Assembly (NCBI GenBank): GCA_020631955.1
Contig: JACKGL010000003.1
Location: forward strand, 8,059 to 72,058
Reading direction: 5' to 3'
DNA length: 64,000 nt
Source of the DNA: Candidatus Nomurabacteria bacterium
GTDB taxonomy: Bacteria; Patescibacteriota; Minisyncoccia; Phycocordibacterales; UBA9973
Positions 3,134 through 61,930 of the stretch are shown piece by piece (the first letter of the stretch is position 1; each line of letters begins with the position of its first letter). The notes below the pieces were generated by a model. That model was given only the letters and a program-made list of their open reading frames with translations, did no database searches and had not been told where the DNA came from. The translations under genes and the position numbers were made by a program.

Positions 3134-4144
3134 ATGTTGTTAGGAAAAGCATCACCTGAAGACATGAATCTTCACCCTATGCACTACAAATGGGCATATG
3201 ATCTTTACAACCAAGCTGTGAGAAACACATGGTTTCCACACGAAATACCGCTAGGAGAAGACCTGATGGATTGGAAGGGTATGACAGACGATGAAAAACA
3301 CGCCGTGACATTTCTTATGGCATTTTTCAATCCAGCAGAGCTCATAGTAAACAGATCTTTAGCACTTGGAGTATATCCTTATATAAAGTCTCCTGAATGT
3401 CACCTATATTTGGCAAAACAAATGTGGGAAGAAGCTAACCACTGTGTAGCTTTCGAATACGTACTAGAAACTTTCCCGTTTGATAGAGACGAGATATACA
3501 ATGTGCATATAAATACACCTTCTATGTTTGCTAAAGAGAGCTTCATAAACAAGTATCTAAAAAGAATGACAGAAGACACTCTAGATATATCTACTATAGA
3601 AGGTAAAAAAGACTTTATACGTAACCTTGTGGCTACAAACATCGTAATGGAAGGTATATGGTTTTACACTGGGTTCATGGTTGCTCTATCTTTCCGTCAA
3701 AGAAACAAATTACGCAATTTCGGCTCTATGATCAACTGGGTTGTGAGAGATGAATCACTACACCTTAAGTTCGGTATCAACCTTATACAAAACGCACTAG
3801 AAGAAAACGCTGATCTTGTGACAGAAGAGTTTGCTACTGAGCTTCGTGACATCATCATAGAAGGAGTAAATCTAGAAACAGAATACAATAAAGACCTCTT
3901 TCCAAAAGGAATACTCGGTCTTAACGCTGACTATGTAAACCAATACGTACAATACATAGCAGATAGAAGACTGGAAGAACTAGGTATGCCTATTTATTAC
4001 AATGCGACCAATCCTGCAAAATGGATGACTACTGCAAACGACGTATATGAACTTGTGAACTTCTTTGAAGCACAAAATACAGCTTATGAAGTAGACGCAA
4101 AAGGTCACGCAAAAGAAGAGGAAGAAAAACCAAAAGAAGAATAA
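3134..4144 (+). CDS. nrdB: Ribonucleotide reductase beta (small) subunit, class Ic-like (R2c-type)
   Basis: Ferritin-like metal ligands E69, E100-x2-H103, E173, E207-x2-H210. F107 sits where class Ia has the radical Tyr, and Glu sits where class Ia has the first Asp ligand. Confidence 0.9.
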   Translation: MLLGKASPEDMNLHPMHYKWAYDLYNQAVRNTWFPHEIPLGEDLMDWKGMTDDEKHAVTFLMAFFNPAELIVNRSLALGVYPYIKSPECHLYLAKQMWEEANHCVAFEYVLETFPFDRDEIYNVHINTPSMFAKESFINKYLKRMTEDTLDISTIEGKKDFIRNLVATNIVMEGIWFYTGFMVALSFRQRNKLRNFGSMINWVVRDESLHLKFGINLIQNALEENADLVTEEFATELRDIIIEGVNLETEYNKDLFPKGILGLNADYVNQYVQYIADRRLEELGMPIYYNATNPAKWMTTANDVYELVNFFEAQNTAYEVDAKGHAKEEEEKPKEE

Positions 4145-4159
4145 TAATTTCAAATCAAA

Positions 4160-4190
4160 ACACCCCAGACAATGGGGTGTTTTGATTTTT
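4160..4190 (+). terminator. Rho-independent terminator after nrdB
   Basis: 8-bp stem ACACCCCA/TGGGGTGT with loop GACAA, followed by a T-rich tract. Confidence 0.75.
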
Positions 4191-4210
4191 ATTTATATTT
4201 GTGGTATAAT
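4182..4210 (+). promoter_or_regulatory. Sigma-70 type promoter for rnpB
   Basis: TTGATT (4182-4187), 17-bp spacer, TATAAT (4205-4210), just upstream of the RNase P RNA. Confidence 0.65.
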
Positions 4211-4211
4211 A

Positions 4212-4546
4212 AAGAGGTACCGGATAACAGCGTCCGCCCAAGGTGGATGAGGAAAGTCCGAACACACACATTTGTAAAAATGTAGCACGGTAGCGGGTAA
4301 CACCCGTCCTCCGACCCAGGTCGGAGAGAGGTGCGAGCAGTGACGCCAAAGTCGAAAGATGGAGGATTCCTTTATGGAATAATTTTATGGCAACATAAAA
4401 GTGAAACGGCTAAATCCTTACCTGTGTGCAAGACCGTATTCTCTGGTTTCCAGAGTTTGAGTCGCTTGAGGTCTGGAGCAATCTAGATCCTAGATAAATT
4501 GTTATCCTTCACTTTGTGAAGACAGAATTCGGCTTATAGGTACAAA
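4212..4546 (+). ncRNA. rnpB: RNase P RNA (bacterial M1 RNA)
   Basis: Universal motif GAGGAAAGTCCG at 4249-4260 and ACAGAATTCGGCTTATA at 4522-4538. 5' GGTAC (4216-4220) can pair with 3' GGTAC (4539-4543) as P1. End coordinates are approximate. Confidence 0.88.
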
Positions 4547-4556
4547 AAAATATGAA

Positions 4557-4590
4557 AACAACCACGTACTCCGTGGTTGTTTTCTATTTT
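4557..4590 (+). terminator. Terminator after rnpB
   Basis: 10-bp stem AACAACCACG/CGTGGTTGTT followed by TTTCTATTTT. Confidence 0.75.
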
Positions 4591-4597
4591 AGATAAG

Positions 4598-4625
4598 TAA
4601 AAACCCCTCGGATAGAGAGGGGGTC
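4598..4625 (-). terminator. Terminator of the Lys/Ala-rich small protein gene
   Basis: On the minus strand, ACCCCCTC...GAGGGGT hairpin followed by a T-run. Confidence 0.6.
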
Positions 4626-4655
4626 TTACTATAGTGGAATAATAATAGTAATTTA

Positions 4656-4814
4656 TTATTTTCTCTTTGTTGTTCTTCTCTTTGCTGTCTTCTTAGTAGC
4701 TTTTTTAGCTGTTTTTCTTTTAGCTGTTTTCTTTGCAGCTTTCTTAGCTGGCTTTCTTTTAGCTACTTTTTTCTTTGCAACTTTTTTAGTTGCCTTTCTT
4801 TTTTTAGCTGGCAT
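4656..4814 (-). CDS. Small Lys/Ala-rich basic protein (histone H1-tail-like / Hc1-like nucleoid protein), 52 aa
   Basis: MPAKKRKATKKVAKKKVAKRKPAKKAAKKTAKRKTAKKATKKTAKRRTTKRK. Internal ATG at 4812-4814 preferred over the longer ORF-track start. Confidence 0.6.
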   Translation of the reverse strand: MPAKKRKATKKVAKKKVAKRKPAKKAAKKTAKRKTAKKATKKTAKRRTTKRK

Positions 4815-4931
4815 GTTTTTTGTACAAAAAAATTTAATAATGGTGATGGACGACCTTTTTTCTCTCATCACTACTTACATATTAATTATCGTACACAAAC
4901 GTACTACTTATCAATACTTTTTTTTATAAAC

Positions 4932-4940
4932 TGTGGATAA
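4932..4940. promoter_or_regulatory. Perfect DnaA box (TGTGGATAA, the reverse complement of TTATCCACA)
   Basis: Exact 9-mer immediately left of a 76-bp pure A/T tract. Confidence 0.45.
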
Positions 4941-4941
4941 C

Positions 4942-5017
4942 TTTTTTTATTTTTTTAAAAAAAATTTTAATAAATATTTTATTTTTAAAAAATTATTTTT
5001 TTTTATTTTATTTAAAA
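4942..5017. other. 76-bp uninterrupted A/T-only tract
   Basis: No G or C between 4942 and 5017. Lies in the 500-bp non-coding gap between the small basic protein gene and secA. Confidence 0.9.
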
Positions 5018-5105
5018 CAAAAATTGAGTACTCTGTTGTCAGCGACGGCATGACTCCAACACAAATGCCTATGTGAGTGCGGTCGCCGACAACACAATAC
5101 TCAAT
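5012..5105 (-). ncRNA. Candidate small RNA: 81-nt imperfect long hairpin with its own promoter and U-tract
   Basis: Arms 5024-5046 and 5082-5104 pair over about 23 bp with 3 mismatches. On the minus strand an extended -10 TGATATAAT (5112-5120) sits about 7 nt before the hairpin, and TTTTTGTTTT follows it. Strand assignment is tentative. Confidence 0.4.
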
Positions 5106-5157
5106 ACTTTTATTATATCAAATTTATTTATAAATGCTTCTGGGTTTTTTATTTTAC

Positions 5158-5231
5158 CAACAGAAAACCCCGACTAGGTCGGGGTGCTCTGTTAGGCATT
5201 TGTATTATTAATTTGGAGTGATTAAACTCAC
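5158..5231 (-). ncRNA. Candidate small RNA (about 75 nt) delimited by a strong promoter and a terminator
   Basis: Minus-strand TTGACT (5261-5266), 17-bp spacer, TATACT (5238-5243) with TGC just upstream. Terminator ACCCCGAC/GTCGGGGT (5167-5187) followed by TTTTCTGTT. No ORF. Confidence 0.45.
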
Positions 5232-5374
5232 GCTTAGAGTATAGCATACTTTGAAAAATAAGTCAAACCCTAAAATATAACTTATTCATACGACTATTTG
5301 TATCTCATATTTAGCTATAGATCGGGGACTTATTTCCTTAGATATTTAGTCAAAAATATGTTAGTATTTCATGT

Positions 5375-7891
5375 ATGAAAATCGGTAAACTAAATGAGTT
5401 ATTTACTACAGGGCAGAGTAAGAATTTCATAAAAAACGCTAATAAAATAGTAGAAAAAATAAACTCCCTTGAGGAGTCTTTTAGCGCTTTGTCTCAAGAA
5501 GATCTGAAGAACAAGACTAGTGAGCTTCGAGCTAGGTATCAGAAAGGGGAGTTGTTGGATGATATGTTGCCAGAGGCTTTTGCTATGGTGCGAGAGGCTG
5601 CAAAAAGGACCATGAATATGCGTCATTATGATGTACAACTTATAGGAGGTATTGCACTACACAAAAGCGGTATAGCAGAGATGCGCACAGGTGAAGGTAA
5701 GACGCTGGTGGCAACACTACCTGTTTTTCTTAACGCTCTTACTGGTAAAGGTGTGCATGTTGTCACAGTAAATGATTATCTAGCTAGAAGAGACGCAGTA
5801 TGGATGGGACAGATATATGATTATCTTGGACTTAGTTTGTCTGTTATAAATAGTCGTGTCTCTTATATATATGATTCTACTTCTACAACTGACTCAGTGG
5901 ATGGAGAAAGAGATGAAGAAGGTGCATACAAAGTAAGTTATGAATATTTACGTGAGGTAAACAGAAAAGATGCGTACGCTGCAGATATCACTTATGGTAC
6001 AAATCATGAATTTGGTTTTGATTATCTTAGAGACAACATTACTAACAACAAAGAAAACTTGGTACAAAGAGGTTTTTATTATGCGATAGTCGACGAGGTA
6101 GACTCTATACTTATAGACGAAGCAAGGACACCTCTTATCATCTCTATGCCGGCGGAGGAGTCAGATGATTTTTATAGAAAATTTGCAGATATAGCAAAGA
6201 TGATGATTCCAGAAACAGATTATAAAGTAGATGAAAAACAAAGAGCCATAAACCTGACAGATGAAGGTATACAAAAAGCGGAGAAAGCTTTAGGTATAGA
6301 AAATATTTATACTGAAAAAGGTATAAAATACGTTCATCACTTAGAGACTGCTGTAAAAGCTAAAGCTCTGTTTATAAAAGATAAAGATTATGTAGTAAAT
6401 GGAGGTGAGATAGTCATAGTCGACGCTTTCACTGGTAGACTGCAGCCGGGTAGAAGATGGAGTGAAGGTCTTCACCAAGCGGTAGAAGCCAAAGAAGGTG
6501 TATCTGTGAAAAGAGAGAGTCGTACAGCAGCTTCTATCACATATCAAAACTACTTTAGGTTCTATGAAAAACTATCTGGTATGACAGGTACCGCAGCTAC
6601 TTCTAAAGAAGAATTTTACAGTGTGTACAAACTAGACGTCATCACTATACCTACTCACAGACCTATACAAAGACTAGATAGAGATGATCTTATTTTCCAA
6701 ACAGAAAATGGTAAGTTCCAAGCTATAGCTAGAAAAATAAAAGAGTTACATGAAAAAGGTCAACCAGTACTAGTAGGTACCATATCTATAGAAAGAAACG
6801 AACTACTTTCTGCTCACCTTATGCAAGAAGGTATACCTCATAAGATACTCAACGCTAAAAACCACGAAGAAGAAGGTTTGATAATCGCAGATGCTGGTAA
6901 AAAAGGTGCTGTGACTATAGCCACGAACATGGCTGGTCGTGGTATAGACATCAAACTAGGAGGTGTAGACGCTACAAAAGAACAAAGTGAAGAAGTAAAG
7001 GCGCTAGGAGGACTATTTGTTTTAGGTACAGAAAGACACGAAGCAAGAAGAATAGATGATCAGCTTCGTGGACGTGCCGGACGTCAGGGAGATCCTGGAG
7101 AAACGCAATTTTTCGTGTCATTAGATGACGACCTTATGAGAATATTTGGACCTGATAGGATAAAGTCTATGATGGGTAGGTTTGGTATACCTGAAGATAT
7201 GCCTATAGAAAACTCTCTTATATCTAGAGGCCTTCGCAACGCTCAAACAAAAATAGAAGGAATTCATTTTGATTCGAGAAAATATGTTTTGGCTTACGAT
7301 GACGTCCTTAGTCGTCAGAGAAATGCCATATATGATAGAAGAAGAAATCTACTTTTAGGTGATAGGACAGAAATAGATTCTTTATTGGAAGAATTATCAA
7401 ACACATCTCCAGATGTACGTATAATGATAAATAATAAAAAAGCTTCTATACCAGAAGATGCTTTTTATGAGACCGTCAGAAGGATAGCTTTGTATGTTAT
7501 AGACTTGCTTTGGGTAGAGCATCTAGAGACCATGGATTATTTAAGGTCGTCTGTAAACCTGCGTGCTTATGGAGGTAGAGATCCACTTGTAGAATACAAA
7601 AAAGAGGCTCTGAATCTGTACAAAAATATGCAAATCTCGTATGAAAACCAAGTTATAGACCTGATAGAAACTATAGAATCCAAAGAAGCTCCTAAGGCAG
7701 AAGTTATACAAGAAAAAACTATAGTGGAAGAAAAACAAGAAACAAAAAGGTTTGATTCTACAGTGAGTGAAGTAAAAAATGTTATGGGTACATCTGGTAA
7801 AAACGATAACGATAAATTTGCCGAAGTTGGTAGAAATGATCCATGTCCTTGTGGTAGTGGAAAGAAATATAAAAAATGCCATGGAATGTAA
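5375..7891 (+). CDS. secA: Preprotein translocase ATPase SecA
   Basis: 838 aa. MRTGEGKT Walker A, DEVDSILIDEARTPLIIS, C-terminal zinc motif CPCGSGKKYKKCHG. Confidence 0.97.
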   Translation: MKIGKLNELFTTGQSKNFIKNANKIVEKINSLEESFSALSQEDLKNKTSELRARYQKGELLDDMLPEAFAMVREAAKRTMNMRHYDVQLIGGIALHKSGIAEMRTGEGKTLVATLPVFLNALTGKGVHVVTVNDYLARRDAVWMGQIYDYLGLSLSVINSRVSYIYDSTSTTDSVDGERDEEGAYKVSYEYLREVNRKDAYAADITYGTNHEFGFDYLRDNITNNKENLVQRGFYYAIVDEVDSILIDEARTPLIISMPAEESDDFYRKFADIAKMMIPETDYKVDEKQRAINLTDEGIQKAEKALGIENIYTEKGIKYVHHLETAVKAKALFIKDKDYVVNGGEIVIVDAFTGRLQPGRRWSEGLHQAVEAKEGVSVKRESRTAASITYQNYFRFYEKLSGMTGTAATSKEEFYSVYKLDVITIPTHRPIQRLDRDDLIFQTENGKFQAIARKIKELHEKGQPVLVGTISIERNELLSAHLMQEGIPHKILNAKNHEEEGLIIADAGKKGAVTIATNMAGRGIDIKLGGVDATKEQSEEVKALGGLFVLGTERHEARRIDDQLRGRAGRQGDPGETQFFVSLDDDLMRIFGPDRIKSMMGRFGIPEDMPIENSLISRGLRNAQTKIEGIHFDSRKYVLAYDDVLSRQRNAIYDRRRNLLLGDRTEIDSLLEELSNTSPDVRIMINNKKASIPEDAFYETVRRIALYVIDLLWVEHLETMDYLRSSVNLRAYGGRDPLVEYKKEALNLYKNMQISYENQVIDLIETIESKEAPKAEVIQEKTIVEEKQETKRFDSTVSEVKNVMGTSGKNDNDKFAEVGRNDPCPCGSGKKYKKCHGM

Positions 7892-15372: not shown

Positions 15373-15741
15373 TTAATTTATACTTATATTCCAACTTTTA
15401 ATCTGTTCATACTCATTTCCATTTTTATCGCTAAATATCAGCTCATATTGGCCTGGTTTTAGTATTTTATCTAGGTCTGTGTTTTTACTTAAAACATCCT
15501 CCACTTCCATAACAATATTTCCACTTTCATTTTTCACTGTGAGTTTTATATATGTGTAGCCTAGGTTTTGTATCAAAGTATTACTTTTGTCTTTTCCATT
15601 TACAATAAAAGCTGGATTTTCAGTACTCAGCGTATTATTTGAGTTGGAAAATGTAGGCGTTATATAGCCTATAGCTATACCTATACATCCGCTTACGATT
15701 AGTACTACCAAAAGTGTCCAAATACGTACTTTTATTTTCAT
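15373..15741 (-). CDS. Small membrane-anchored/lipoprotein-like hypothetical protein
   Basis: Signal/TM segment LLVVLIVSGC; 1-nt gap to the downstream hydrolase gene. Confidence 0.65.
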   Translation of the reverse strand: MKIKVRIWTLLVVLIVSGCIGIAIGYITPTFSNSNNTLSTENPAFIVNGKDKSNTLIQNLGYTYIKLTVKNESGNIVMEVEDVLSKNTDLDKILKPGQYELIFSDKNGNEYEQIKSWNISIN

Positions 15742-51488: not shown

Positions 51489-52196
51489 TTATATAATTTC
51501 AGTACCCATTCTTCTTAATTTCTCAAATACGAGAAGAACAAAAACGGTAGCTATCCAAAGGAAAGAATATATAGCTAATATATCATTTCCACCTCTTTCT
51601 ATTATAAAGAAATTAAAGGCACTATGCAATGCTATAGCTGCAAAAACTCCTACTATTGTGTATAAGTGTCTTACGAACTTTGTTTTGTAAAAAGCCAGAC
51701 CTATGGATATACCGATAGTAGCACTTGCTGTGGAGTGTAGTAGAGTAGAACCTAGAAATCTTAGTTGTCCTGCCAAAAGACCTACGGTAAATTCTCCAGA
51801 AAGATTTGGGTCTACAAGGAAGAGACTGTTTTCTAAAGCGGCAAAACCCATAGCAGCTGTGATGAAGTATATAGGGAAGTCTACTGGTTCATCCATGACC
51901 TTGCCTGGTATAGCCAATATACCTACTGCCAAGAACTTGATGATCTCTTCTACACCCGCGGCAGATATTATGCCAAATATTCCAGAGTCTGGTACAACTT
52001 GTAGTATAAACTTCTGTAACGGTATCACGAATACCACACCCAAAGCTCCTAGAATAAATGTAAGAAAAAGCAGACCTTTTGGTTCTGGGTTTACATTGTC
52101 TTCTTTAAGCCAAAACCAAAGCCATATCAAAGTAGGCAAGAGCGCCGCTACGACTATGTATAAAACTAGTTCTGGTGTTATTGGATTTGATCCCAT
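51489..52196 (-). CDS. PrsW family intramembrane metalloprotease
   Basis: EEIIKFLA, AALENSLF and HSTASA motifs in a multi-TM protein. Start at MGSNPITPEL (52194-52196). Confidence 0.82.
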   Translation of the reverse strand: MGSNPITPELVLYIVVAALLPTLIWLWFWLKEDNVNPEPKGLLFLTFILGALGVVFVIPLQKFILQVVPDSGIFGIISAAGVEEIIKFLAVGILAIPGKVMDEPVDFPIYFITAAMGFAALENSLFLVDPNLSGEFTVGLLAGQLRFLGSTLLHSTASATIGISIGLAFYKTKFVRHLYTIVGVFAAIALHSAFNFFIIERGGNDILAIYSFLWIATVFVLLVFEKLRRMGTEII

Positions 52197-54376
52197 TTTT
52201 GTACCATTAGGAGATCTTTCTCTTCTAATATCGACCAAAGTTCTTCAGTGACAAAAGGCATGAAAGGATGAAGTACCTTTAATATGTCTCTTAACATTAT
52301 AGCAAGAAAAGCTTTTCTAGAAGCTATTTGAGAAGCATCTCCTTCTGTAAATATTTGTTTACTCTCTTCTAGTATTTCTGAGGCAAACTTGTTCCATACA
52401 TAGCCATATATTTTTTCTGCACTTATGTGAAGTAGATATGAGTCCATCTCTTTTTCTATCTCTCTTACAAAGCTTACGAATTCATCACGGAGCTTTTTGT
52501 CTGACTCGTTTAGTTCATTTGTCATATCAGTAGCTTCTGTGTGAGTCACTACGAACCTAGCTATGTTCCATATTTTGTTGGAGAAGTTTCTCTGACCTTT
52601 TACTTTATCCCAGCTGATGCGAGAGTCTATACCTGGTGCTGATCCAAATATAAGAGACATTCTTCCTGCATCTGCACCATACTTCTCTGCGACTTCTAGC
52701 GGGTCGATACCGTTGCCGAGACTCTTACTCATCTTTCTTCCTTTGTCATCACGCACTGTGCCGTGAAGATATACAGTGTGGAAGGGAATAGTACCGAGTG
52801 CATAACCAGTCATCATGATCATACGAGCCACCCAAAAGAAAAGTATTTCATATCCGGTTTCAAGTACGTCTGTAGGATGATATATCTCTAGATCTTTTGT
52901 TTTCTCTGGCCAACCAAGAGTAGAAAATGTCCAAATACCAGAAGAGAACCAAGTATCCAGAGTATCTGGGTCTTGTTCCCAGCCTTCTTCTTTTGGTGTT
53001 TCAGTACTTACAGATATTTCATCACCTTTGTACCATACAGGCACCCTGTGTCCGTACCATATCTGACGACTTATACACCAGTCGCGGAGGTTGTCTATCC
53101 AGTTGAAATAAGTCTTATCAAAGTGTTCTGGGAGTATCTTTATTTGTCCATTGTCCACTACTTTTCTCATGAGGTATTTCAAAGTGACTTCTTCTCCTGT
53201 AGATATACCATCTATATGTGAATCTTTTACTGTGAAAGGTTTGTTTACGTTGATAAACCATTGGAGTTTTGGCAACGGCTCTATTATCCCACCTGTTCTT
53301 TCTGCTGTAGCTATGTTTTGAGATATTTCTTCTTCTTTTTCTAAGAGCCCTTCGGAACGAAGCCATGAGACTACTTCTTCTCTAGCTTCTGTGGTCTTTT
53401 TACCCAAAATATTTTCACCTCCAACAGTCATTTTGGCGTATTCGTTGATAACTTGTATCTTTGGTAAGTCGTGTCTTTCAGCCATGTCCCAATCTATCAT
53501 CGAGTGTGCAGGGGTTACTCCCAGCGCACCTGTTCCAAAATCTTTTTCTACAGCTTCGTCAGCTATCACTTTTATGTGTATATCAACACCACAAAAGTTG
53601 ATATCGTATTCTTTACCAACATATTCTTTGTATCTAGGATCATCAGGATGCACGGCCACAGCAGTATCTCCGACTTTGGTTTCAGGTCTAGTGGTCGAGA
53701 TACTTATAGGGAAGTCGTGACTGTATTTGAAAGTATAAAGTTTGGCTTTTCTTTCTTCATAAACTATTTCATCATCTGCTATCGTAGTCTGGCCTTTTGG
53801 ATCCCAGTTTACTATCCTGTGTCCACGATATATGAGTCCGTCATCATACATCATCTTGAAAATAGTATTTACTGCTTTGTTGCGAGTATCATCTAGAGTA
53901 AAAGCTTCACGAGACCAGTCGCAAGAAGAACCCATCTTTTTTACTTGTGAGACTATGGTGTCATGAGACTCTTGAGCGAATTTAGATACTCTCTTGAGAA
54001 GTTCTTCTCTACCTAGATCGTGACGGCTTTTACCTTCTTTCTTTTGTATTTCTTTTTCCACTTTTGATTGAGTAGCTATGGCAGCGTGGTCTGTACCTGG
54101 TAGCCAAAGCGTACGGTAGCCTTGCATTCTTTTATACCTGACCATTATGTCTTCTATGGTAAGCATGAGACCGTGTCCCATGTGGAGTACTCCTGTCACG
54201 TTTGGAGGAGGCATCATGATGGTAAAAGGTTTGGCATCAGGTGCAGTGTGCCCGTCGGATATCATTTTTTCAGGGTTGAAATAACCACTTTTTTCCCATA
54301 TTTCGTATATCTTAGATTCTGTATCTAAGTGTTCATAAGGTTTTAGTAGTTTCGGGTTTATTTCTTTATCTTCCAT
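52178..54376 (-). CDS. valS: Valine--tRNA ligase
   Basis: PPPNVTGVLHMGH (HIGH), KMSKSLGN (KMSKS), editing-domain blocks. Start at MEDKEINPK (ATG 54374-54376). Confidence 0.96.
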   Translation of the reverse strand: MEDKEINPKLLKPYEHLDTESKIYEIWEKSGYFNPEKMISDGHTAPDAKPFTIMMPPPNVTGVLHMGHGLMLTIEDIMVRYKRMQGYRTLWLPGTDHAAIATQSKVEKEIQKKEGKSRHDLGREELLKRVSKFAQESHDTIVSQVKKMGSSCDWSREAFTLDDTRNKAVNTIFKMMYDDGLIYRGHRIVNWDPKGQTTIADDEIVYEERKAKLYTFKYSHDFPISISTTRPETKVGDTAVAVHPDDPRYKEYVGKEYDINFCGVDIHIKVIADEAVEKDFGTGALGVTPAHSMIDWDMAERHDLPKIQVINEYAKMTVGGENILGKKTTEAREEVVSWLRSEGLLEKEEEISQNIATAERTGGIIEPLPKLQWFINVNKPFTVKDSHIDGISTGEEVTLKYLMRKVVDNGQIKILPEHFDKTYFNWIDNLRDWCISRQIWYGHRVPVWYKGDEISVSTETPKEEGWEQDPDTLDTWFSSGIWTFSTLGWPEKTKDLEIYHPTDVLETGYEILFFWVARMIMMTGYALGTIPFHTVYLHGTVRDDKGRKMSKSLGNGIDPLEVAEKYGADAGRMSLIFGSAPGIDSRISWDKVKGQRNFSNKIWNIARFVVTHTEATDMTNELNESDKKLRDEFVSFVREIEKEMDSYLLHISAEKIYGYVWNKFASEILEESKQIFTEGDASQIASRKAFLAIMLRDILKVLHPFMPFVTEELWSILEEKDLLMVQKWDQIQ

Positions 54377-54403
54377 ATTGGAATAATATAGCATTTATAA
54401 GGC

Positions 54404-54432
54404 TTGTTTGGAATAGGATATTATGATATATT
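54404..54432 (+). promoter_or_regulatory. Promoter TTGTTT-17-TATATT with TGn extended -10
   Basis: TTGTTT 54404-54409; TGA TATATT 54424-54432. Confidence 0.5.
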
Positions 54433-54438
54433 CTAGAT

Positions 54439-54598
54439 AAGTAGTTCATTTGGAGAAAACCCCAAAAAAGATGGAGTCGTAATTGCTTCGGAAATACCCT
54501 CAGTATCTCTGGGGAGCTCTAAAAGCATTGATTCCTTCGAACCAGTTCAAATGGACTGCAGACCACCCGGGCGAGTGAATTCGTTGCCCGGGTTTTTT
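54439..54598 (+). ncRNA. Candidate structured RNA / riboswitch-like leader upstream of dgkA (class not recognised)
   Basis: An 11-bp long-range helix (54444-54454 with 54546-54556) encloses internal hairpins, including a C(UUCG)G loop at 54486-54491. Strong terminator CCCGGGC/GCCCGGG (54566-54592) plus T6. Confidence 0.5.
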
Positions 54599-54634
54599 AT
54601 TTTATAAAAAACCTTTATCTAGTATAATTTACCC

Positions 54635-55024
54635 ATGGATAAAAAGACCGTAAAAAGTTTTAGCATAATCAAAAGAAAGGAAAGTCTTGGGCATGCACTG
54701 CGTGGTATGTGGCTTTTCTTGCGTACTCAGCACAACGCTTGGCTGCACGTAGCTTCTACTGTGTTTATAGTAGGGCTCGGTATAGCGTACAAAATATCTC
54801 ATATAGAATGGATGGTGCTAGCTATAGTCATAGGTATAGTTTTTATCGCAGAAGCCTTTAACACTGCTATAGAGATAGATATAGATCTGACTTCACCTGA
54901 ATACCATCCCTATGCGAAAGACACCAAAGACGTAGCTGCCGGTGCGGTGCTTCTAAGTGCCATACTTGCTTTTAGTGTAGGGCTAATAATATTTCTTCCG
55001 AAAATACTTGCTCACGTTAGATAG
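54635..55024 (+). CDS. dgkA: Diacylglycerol kinase / undecaprenol kinase family (DgkA-like)
   Basis: 129 aa, three TM helices, conserved EAFNTAIE motif. Confidence 0.85.
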   Translation: MDKKTVKSFSIIKRKESLGHALRGMWLFLRTQHNAWLHVASTVFIVGLGIAYKISHIEWMVLAIVIGIVFIAEAFNTAIEIDIDLTSPEYHPYAKDTKDVAAGAVLLSAILAFSVGLIIFLPKILAHVR

Positions 55025-61288: not shown

Positions 61289-61336
61289 TGTTTAAAACTT
61301 TTGCATAAAAAATATTGCGTGGGTTATAATTTATAT

Positions 61337-61930
61337 ATGAGAAAAGTAAACTACAAGGAAGTTTTGTTTGTGATACTTGGAGCTGCTATTTTACTTTTTG
61401 CTATACCTTACAAGCCAGCAGAAAGTCCCGTTCACGGCAGACCGACTACAAATATTTCCGACTACGAAGAGACTGTAAATGAAATATTGAGTGTAGTAAC
61501 ATTGTCCGCAGAGATCAATGAACCAGTAGGAACTTTGTTTGAAGAATACTATGCTACTCACAGCTCTGCTTCTATGAGTGATATACAAATGAAACTCCTA
61601 GATCAAGCTAAAAGGAGATTTGACGGCGCTGGTGTAGCCCTAAAGATACCTACAGTAGATGGTGTGAGTCTATATTCTATGCAAGGAGGGGAAGGGTACG
61701 GTGGGTACTTTTGGGTGCTTTGGCTTTCTCAAGACAAGAAAGAAAGTCTCTATGGTAACCCTGATATAACTATCAATTTCCCAGTAGAAGACCCTAGTGT
61801 ACTGATGGTAAGGACAGAAAAATTTGTAGTAGACGGTGAAGATGAGCCTCTCGTAAGAGGGTACTTGATAGAAGATGGATTTGCTAAGCCTACAGTAGGA
61901 CTTTCTCCTGTATTTGTGGAATACAAGTAA
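61337..61930 (+). CDS. Hypothetical membrane-anchored protein
   Basis: MRKVNYKEVLFVILGAAILLFA anchor. ATG 61337 preferred because the ORF-track start includes a TATAAT box. Confidence 0.55.
   Translation: MRKVNYKEVLFVILGAAILLFAIPYKPAESPVHGRPTTNISDYEETVNEILSVVTLSAEINEPVGTLFEEYYATHSSASMSDIQMKLLDQAKRRFDGAGVALKIPTVDGVSLYSMQGGEGYGGYFWVLWLSQDKKESLYGNPDITINFPVEDPSVLMVRTEKFVVDGEDEPLVRGYLIEDGFAKPTVGLSPVFVEYK

Follow-up and report, generated by a model that had tools for sequence, protein, structure and literature searches.

The window (the whole stretch of 64,000 nucleotides analysed here) contains a 240-nt gap between valS and dgkA that is occupied by a candidate structured RNA. The question raised by this locus is whether that RNA controls dgkA in cis, as a riboswitch or attenuator would, or is the product of a gene of its own. 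valS (52178-54394, - strand) is the divergent neighbour, identified from the list of open reading frames (ORFs) and from Pfam domains on identical contigs; its first ATG is at 54394, and a start at 54376 is more likely. dgkA (54635-55024, + strand) encodes a 129 aa protein with a DAGK_prokar domain (Pfam PF01219, E = 6.5e-32), adjoins the RNA without being part of it and is convergent with tsaD. The genome belongs to the Patescibacteria (CPR) and is of the Paceibacteria/Nomurabacteria type: contigs identical to the window have been deposited as Candidatus Nomurabacteria bacterium, and the nearest valS loci among GTDB genomes all bear Paceibacteria/Nomurabacteria-type names. Contigs of this organism are also present in SRR6747803/4, SRR14234084-121, SRR28338157 and the ERZ28655xxx series. 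Because CPR/Patescibacteria have tiny genomes with very short intergenic regions, a conserved non-coding interval of about 240 nt stands out. The RNA region has a G+C content of 45%, compared with 36% overall. A search of the full-text literature found no regulatory RNA described for CPR/Patescibacteria, no ncRNA in CPR/Parcubacteria and no dgkA-linked RNA motif; if validated, a lineage-specific small RNA (sRNA) would be a useful entry point to gene regulation in these uncultivated bacteria.

The RNA appears to have a promoter of its own. As the original prediction had placed it, an extended -10 promoter (TTGTTT-17-TATATT) is present at exactly 54404-54432 of the + strand. It consists of a -35-like TTGTTT (54404-54409), a 17-nt spacer and an extended -10 element, TGaTATATT (54424-54432), in which the hexamer TATATT occupies 54427-54432 and the TG at 54424-54425 falls inside the spacer. 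A simple consensus scan missed this promoter, as its -35 element matches the consensus at only 3/6 bases; like the start site and termination of the RNA, it was read from the sequence only. The predicted start is the A at 54439/54440. In two homologues from related lineages, L108 (TGTTATATT) and L091 (TGTTAGTAT), the pattern TGnTAnnnT is found at a constant distance from the basal helix of the RNA (P1) despite a variable spacer. The hairpin that joins the promoter block to the start region is not kept in L091. Elsewhere in the window, the gene for RNase P RNA (4217-4547, + strand) begins 7 nt after an extended -10 element (TGgTATAAT), and the same layout is seen here, with TGaTATATT followed by 6 nt before 54439; this shared arrangement supports reading the element as an RNA gene that starts independently.

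The promoter region of valS overlaps a 40-nt block (54377-54416, ATTGGAATAATATAGCATTTATAAGGCTTGTTTGGAATAG) that spans the back-to-back valS and RNA promoters. This block is almost invariant in all lineages, with conservation far above that of neutral sites, and may contain a binding site for a regulator.

At the other end of the RNA, the strong intrinsic terminator that had been predicted upstream of the dgkA ATG (54635), with a T6 run ending at 54598, was confirmed. It is an inverted repeat (54565-54598, + strand) with the stem ACCCGGGCGAG...UUGCCCGGGU followed by U6; the hairpin occupies 54565-54593 and the T6 run 54593-54598, and the T-run is found on the + strand only. The arm has 8 bp of perfect, GC-rich pairing that extend to about 12 pairs, which classes it as an intrinsic (Rho-independent) terminator, and it contributes about -19 kcal/mol to the predicted fold (-56.4 versus -37.5 kcal/mol). 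A simple consensus scan missed it, the loop being longer than 8 nt when the GC arms alone are counted. The pairing survives U-A and G-U changes in L091 and in a third related lineage, L106, and is also kept in L108. Folding of the terminator does not depend on the core, and its 5' half has no competing pairing in either the window or L091.

Beyond the terminator, dgkA has a putative promoter of its own (54601-54628, + strand; TTTATA-16-TATAAT), which was called by the consensus scan and lies outside the RNA. Six nucleotides separate its -10 element from the ATG. TAGTATAATTT is invariant in four lineages and the 6 nt after it vary; L091, L106 and L108 retain both the -10 element and its spacing, and a further relative, L012, has TACAAT at an equal distance. 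A TATAAT positioned 6 nt before the start codon is a signature of leaderless mRNAs. Few candidate starts in the window have a Shine-Dalgarno (SD) sequence, and in several first genes a TATAAT precedes the start codon by exactly 6 nt, which points to leaderless, SD-free gene starts being widespread in this genome. Sites with this layout are found at 15373-15741 (-), 20556 (+), 39702 (+), 54635 (+) and 61301-61930 (+). The scarcity of SD sequences in the window agrees with a study of CPR ribosomes, which reports that the anti-SD motif was detected in only 48% of Parcubacteria (PMC9297842). Judging by these sequence features, the dgkA mRNA would also be leaderless and would be made from the promoter past the terminator. 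Such starts matter when any apparent 5' leader in this genome is judged; read-through from the RNA promoter would give dgkA a long structured leader, a type that this organism seems not to use.

The minimum free energy (MFE) of the + strand is -56.4 kcal/mol (z = -3.7 relative to 200 dinucleotide shuffles); the minus strand folds less well (-50.2 kcal/mol, z = -3.0). The homologues also have non-random folds, with z = -3.4 for L091 and -2.7 for L108. A multi-hairpin core had been proposed for this RNA; instead, the three intact variants (window, L108 and L091) share one unbranched rod with no junction. This rod is the unconstrained MFE structure for the window and L091, and for L108 it is within 1.1 kcal/mol of the optimum once the second helix (P2) is enforced (-27.3 versus -28.4 kcal/mol). 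From base to tip, P1 is followed by a large, asymmetric loop rich in A, then by P2 and two short helices, and the rod is capped by an apical hairpin that varies.

P1 is formed by 54441-54454 (GUAGUUCAUUUGGA) and 54546-54559 (UUCAAAUGGACUGC) of the + strand. The 11-bp long-range helix with two G-U pairs that had been proposed here (GTTCATTTGGA at 54444-54454 with TTCAAATGGAC at 54546-54556) holds as the core of P1, with its length revised, as the helix extends to 14 bp in full. Twelve of its pairs are conserved across the three variants; one position is G-C, A-U and U-A in the three, and three others toggle between G-U and Watson-Crick pairs. Above P1 is a 15/7-nt asymmetric internal loop. Its 5' side (54455-54469, GAAAACCCCAAAAAA) is unpaired in the MFE structures of the window and L091, and a G(A/G)AAACC block and an A-rich run within it are conserved in the alignments; its 3' side is 54539-54545. 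P2 pairs 54470-54478 (GAUGGAGUC) with 54530-54538 (GAUUCCUUC). L108 has five substitutions in the 3' strand of P2 with 8/9 pairs still intact, and L091 has two pairs changed on both sides once a 5-nt gap is shifted.

The inner rod begins on its 5' side (54479-54497) with the loop GUAAUU, the helices GCUU and GGA and the loop AAUAC. By fold and alignment, 54515-54545 holds its 3' side together with the P2 3' strand and the 3' side of the large loop. The loop next to P2 is thus GUAAUU on the 5' side and AUU on the 3' side, the two short helices are 54485-54488/54523-54526 and 54490-54492/54518-54520, and the loop below the apical hairpin (P3) is AAUAC/AGC. AAUUG and GGAAA blocks in the inner rod are conserved. 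In helix 3, 94% of cells are paired and one pair has changed on both sides. P3 (54498-54514; CCUCAG-UAUCU-CUGGGG, pairing 54498-54503 with 54509-54514) is the variable part: the window and L091 differ in both partners of pairs here, L091 has a 12-nt insertion in the loop, and the apex of L108 is a different, longer hairpin than that of the window.

The inner hairpins of the original prediction (CCCCA/UGGGG, GAU-GAG/CUC-AUC and a C(UUCG)G-capped hairpin) are not preserved in L091 or L108. The UGGGG segment pairs instead with CCUCAG in the apical hairpin, and the CUUCGG of the proposed cap becomes UCUAGG or CCUAGG in relatives, such that the UUCG loop is replaced by CUAG. The earlier statement that the approximately 160 nt contain no plausible ORF was upheld: no ORF is conserved, and indels break every reading frame. 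The ATG at 54472 of the window reads ATG GAG TCG TAA, and a small protein-coding gene was rejected.

In the alignment of the three sequences, standard pairs are found in 92% of cells, versus 31-47% when the partners are slid by 1-3 columns, and five pairs have changed on both sides; this covariation is drawn from three intact sequence variants and comprises few events. Thirteen G-U cells would become A-C mismatches on the opposite strand. Together with a T-run that is present on the + strand only, these G-U pairs identify the + strand as the functional one.

The core of the RNA is about 77% identical between the window and L091 at aligned positions; for the four-fold sites of valS, dgkA and tsaD, the corresponding identity is 45-55%, near saturation. 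This difference indicates that the RNA, its -10 element and its terminator are under purifying selection. Indels of 5, 12, 2 and 4 nt distinguish the window from L091.

The RNA is found in about four related lineages, one of which has lost its 5' half. Contigs encoding an identical DgkA carry an identical RNA, and the order valS-RNA-dgkA-tsaD recurs in three further lineages, reached via the neighbouring proteins: L091 (from a JGI metagenome, with a DgkA 87% identical), L108 (for which four more contigs have an identical RNA) and L106. No homologue was detected by blastn, nhmmer or covariance model at 80 valS loci of GTDB species representatives, which are up to 83% identical over the ValS N-terminus. 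Covariance models built from two (R1) and three (R2) sequences found no further member in about 700 kb of related loci, no second copy of the RNA was found in the 64-kb window, and there was no copy in about 700-840 kb of related loci. Pattern scans of viral contigs and a single metagenome scan gave nothing beyond chance matches inside coding regions, BLAST of phage and plasmid collections gave no match to the RNA, and a protein search with the ValS N-terminus gave only partial proteins (≤79% identity) and no closer lineage. In these searches, the RNA was found only in a narrow group of Nomurabacteria-like Patescibacteria. Carriers include the 643-kb contig with MEZ6209279.1, and CP060230.1.

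Identity to the window at four-fold sites gives the order of the lineages: 84-88% for L108, 56-71% for L106 and 45-55% for L091. In L106 (2104-2205, - strand, of a Logan assembly contig; reads in SRR28089850), about 62-67 nt appear to have been deleted, removing the -10 element, the start, the 5' strands of P1 and P2 and the large loop; dgkA, its promoter and the terminator are retained. The P1 3' strand left without its partner has four substitutions, each of which improves its pairing with a block further upstream (AAGGCUUGUUUGGA; 13/14 pairs), and the RNA appears to be dispensable or changing in this lineage. At informative sites of the three flanking genes and the terminator, 74 group the window with L108, versus 22 and 24 for the alternatives. 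In the 3' core (window 54490-54559), the grouping is the window and L106 versus L108 and L091 (8 sites against 1 and 2), and a long apex is common to L108 and L091. The discordance between the core and its flanking genes points to an exchange of two core allele types among lineages, bordered by the invariant promoter block on one side and the terminator on the other.

The original prediction could assign this RNA to no recognised class, and a scan of the whole window against Rfam 15 bears this out: at gathering thresholds, the only matches are RNase P RNA and five tRNAs, with none at the RNA. (The RNase P RNA has 100.5 bits where the gathering score is 100, and several of its helices align only in shortened form or not at all.) At E<=10, the window, L091 and L108 have weak matches far below threshold, none of which is common to all three. 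Those in the window are mostly driven by the terminator; STnc370 and L20_leader recur in two variants, also far below threshold and located on the terminator. By these comparisons, the RNA would be in no described family.

Taken together, the promoter and independent terminator of the RNA, its conserved fold and the separate start of dgkA argue for a stand-alone sRNA gene. We lean, with modest confidence, towards a clade-restricted, trans-acting sRNA of about 155-160 nt with its own promoter and terminator and without cis control of dgkA. The original prediction had offered an independent sRNA divergent from valS as one of its options, and it is this option that the separate starts and the uncontested terminator favour. 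Transcription would begin near 54439 from the extended -10 promoter and would always stop at the terminator at 54565-54598. The product would fold into a long imperfect hairpin with a P1 of 12-14 bp, a P2 of 8-9 bp and internal loops displaying the conserved AAUUG and GGAAA. dgkA would be expressed as a leaderless mRNA from the downstream promoter, and the RNA would act in trans, its stable rod and conserved internal-loop nucleotides binding or sequestering a protein. Transcription of the RNA, its action in trans and its binding partner are predictions.

RNAs that bind or sequester proteins are usually built as a stable rod with conserved nucleotides exposed in internal loops. As conserved loop nucleotides combined with compensated helices are typical of such RNAs, we infer that a protein-binding or decoy role is the most likely mode of action, followed by base-pairing with mRNAs through the A-rich loop. 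The RNA resembles bacterial sRNA genes with sigma-70-type promoters in having its own promoter, a discrete (here predicted) product of approximately 160 nt, a Rho-independent terminator, an intergenic location and a narrow, patchy distribution, and it is most likely a new, clade-restricted member of this general class. It differs from them in belonging to no known family and in the location of its conserved nucleotides, which are not in an exposed seed but within internal loops along a long rod.

This last difference bears on the possibility that the RNA is a base-pairing sRNA, in which unpaired conserved nucleotides, for instance those of the A-rich loop (GAAAACC...AAAAAA), would pair with mRNAs from elsewhere in the genome. 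A promoter and terminator of its own, as in classical sRNAs, and the presence of a conserved unpaired stretch in all variants are consistent with this mechanism. However, the candidate seed is held within the internal loop of a very stable rod instead of being exposed at the 5' end or the apex, selection acts on helices along the whole length, as is more typical of protein-binding RNAs, and predicted pairing with the neighbouring 5' ends (dgkA and valS) is no better than random. We regard base-pairing in trans as unlikely.

If the RNA were instead a dgkA leader acting in cis, whether as a riboswitch of a new class or as an attenuator that depends on a protein or tRNA, the rod would be its sensor and the terminator would decide whether transcription from 54439 proceeds into dgkA. 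The original prediction had described the architecture as aptamer plus expression platform, and promoter, structured RNA, terminator and dgkA do follow one another on one strand in all four lineages, with conserved nucleotides in internal loops, as in aptamers. The RNA is directly upstream of dgkA on the same strand in every carrier; as the carriers are close and syntenic, this is uninformative on a link between the two. Against a leader, no antiterminator that competes with the terminator was found in the folds of the window or L091: when the nascent transcript is folded as far as the terminator loop, the rod is unchanged and the 5' half of the terminator remains free. The conserved TATAAT past the terminator, 6 nt from the ATG, has a layout that recurs in this SD-poor window, and L106 keeps dgkA, its promoter and the terminator yet has lost the 5' half of the RNA. 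No recurrent association with dgkA was found across lineages. The dgkA homologues in three other relatives checked (L101-L103; 63-66% identity) are 24-34 nt behind the upstream gene or overlap it, which leaves no room for the RNA, and in L012, the only one of the 80 valS loci with dgkA nearby, two ORFs precede dgkA. No known aptamer class matches. The RNA is thus like terminating riboswitches in its order of promoter, conserved P1-closed structured domain, terminator and gene, and unlike them in having no switching helix, a gene promoter past the terminator, no dgkA association outside the clade and no aptamer match. Given the separate dgkA promoter, the lack of an antiterminator, the absence of the RNA upstream of relatives' dgkA and the narrow distribution, the riboswitch reading is weak. 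The RNA is probably not a riboswitch for dgkA, and a leader of any of these kinds seems improbable; in practical terms, there is probably no new riboswitch class here reporting lipid-carrier or cell-wall metabolism.

We give a similarly low probability to the RNA being a decaying relic with no present function, derived from a former 5' UTR or from an element inserted at a variable chromosomal spot. Several features are compatible with such an origin: none of 80 related genomes has the RNA at this locus, the valS-tsaD interval differs between relatives, the 5' half has been lost in L106, another relative (L001) retains only a 15-mer of the 5' end, and a 12-nt inverted repeat (54429-54440/54615-54626, TATTCTAGATAA/TTATCTAGTATA) brackets the gene. 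This repeat overlaps the -10 regions of both the RNA and dgkA promoters and is not kept in L091, and it probably arose by chance in promoter sequence that is rich in A and T. Decay is difficult to reconcile with a conservation of the window and L091 sequences that far exceeds neutral expectation, with pairing kept through both-sided changes and G-U intermediates, or with the maintenance of the -10 element and terminator. With a single copy in 64 kb and none in 840 kb of related DNA, the RNA is also no repeat element.

Among protein-sequestering RNAs, we considered a small functional analogue of 6S RNA, in which a rod with a central bubble mimics an open promoter and sequesters the RNA polymerase holoenzyme. 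The unbranched rod, the 15-nt/7-nt internal loop between two helical arms, an apex that is the only variable part, the promoter of its own and the apparent dispensability of the RNA in L106 are all in keeping with this model, and 6S RNA (RF00013 and relatives) likewise has an unbranched rod, a large internal bubble, a variable apex and a structure conserved more than its sequence. 6S RNAs are usually 150-200 nt long and are normally clade-wide. In contrast, this RNA has a core of only about 120 nt with a closing stem of 12-14 bp, its bubble has sides of very unequal length (15/7 nt), only about four lineages carry it, and no variant matches an Rfam 6S covariance model at E<=10. A 6S analogue is therefore quite improbable. 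Just as speculative is the broader proposal that this is the first example of a CPR/Patescibacteria-specific, protein-sequestering RNA (for example, a minimal 6S-like decoy of RNA polymerase or a decoy of another global factor) with a core that would pass between related lineages as an allelic cassette, flanked by the invariant promoter block and the terminator.

Of the remaining candidates, bacterial SRP (4.5S) RNA likewise forms one long hairpin, about 100-120 nt in length, whose internal loops are conserved; it was rejected on the lack of an Rfam match and on the apex, as SRP RNA has a conserved GNRA tetraloop and domain IV loops, whereas the apex here varies in sequence and length (a 5-nt loop versus longer hairpins) and half of the RNA is lost in one lineage. 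A T-box leader, suggested by the adjacent valS, was rejected since the RNA is on the strand opposite valS and neither strand has a T-box match, and 5S rRNA and tRNA-like RNAs were rejected for the lack of a match and the variable apex. In the layout of a retron, a reverse transcriptase is expected downstream; closing inverted repeats are present here, but there is no such gene. The GGA motifs of a CsrA sponge are not conserved between variants in the alignments, a MITE/REP-like or other mobile repeat is inconsistent with a single copy, and predicted antisense duplexes with the 5' ends of dgkA or valS are no better than those of shuffled sequences.

The 15-mer in L001 (at about 3900, - strand; AAGTACTTCATTTGG), a relative without the RNA, has one mismatch to the RNA 5' end and directly follows TTGACA-18-TGGCATAAT, in the same place upstream of valS. 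The sequence past it has no rod-like fold and runs into a 163-aa ORF, and an Rfam scan of L001 at E<=10 gave nothing meaningful. The valS-tsaD interval itself is occupied by the RNA and dgkA in the window, by the 163-aa ORF and a kinase-like ORF in L001, by a 225-aa ORF in L003 and by two ORFs and dgkA in L012. The L003 ValS (3983-6760, + strand; 925 aa) has a His_Phos_1 histidine-phosphatase domain (aa 464-640, E = 9e-28) inserted in its catalytic domain. This domain is absent from the ValS of the window (732-738 aa), and the same domain combination as in the L003 ValS is found in P0177.
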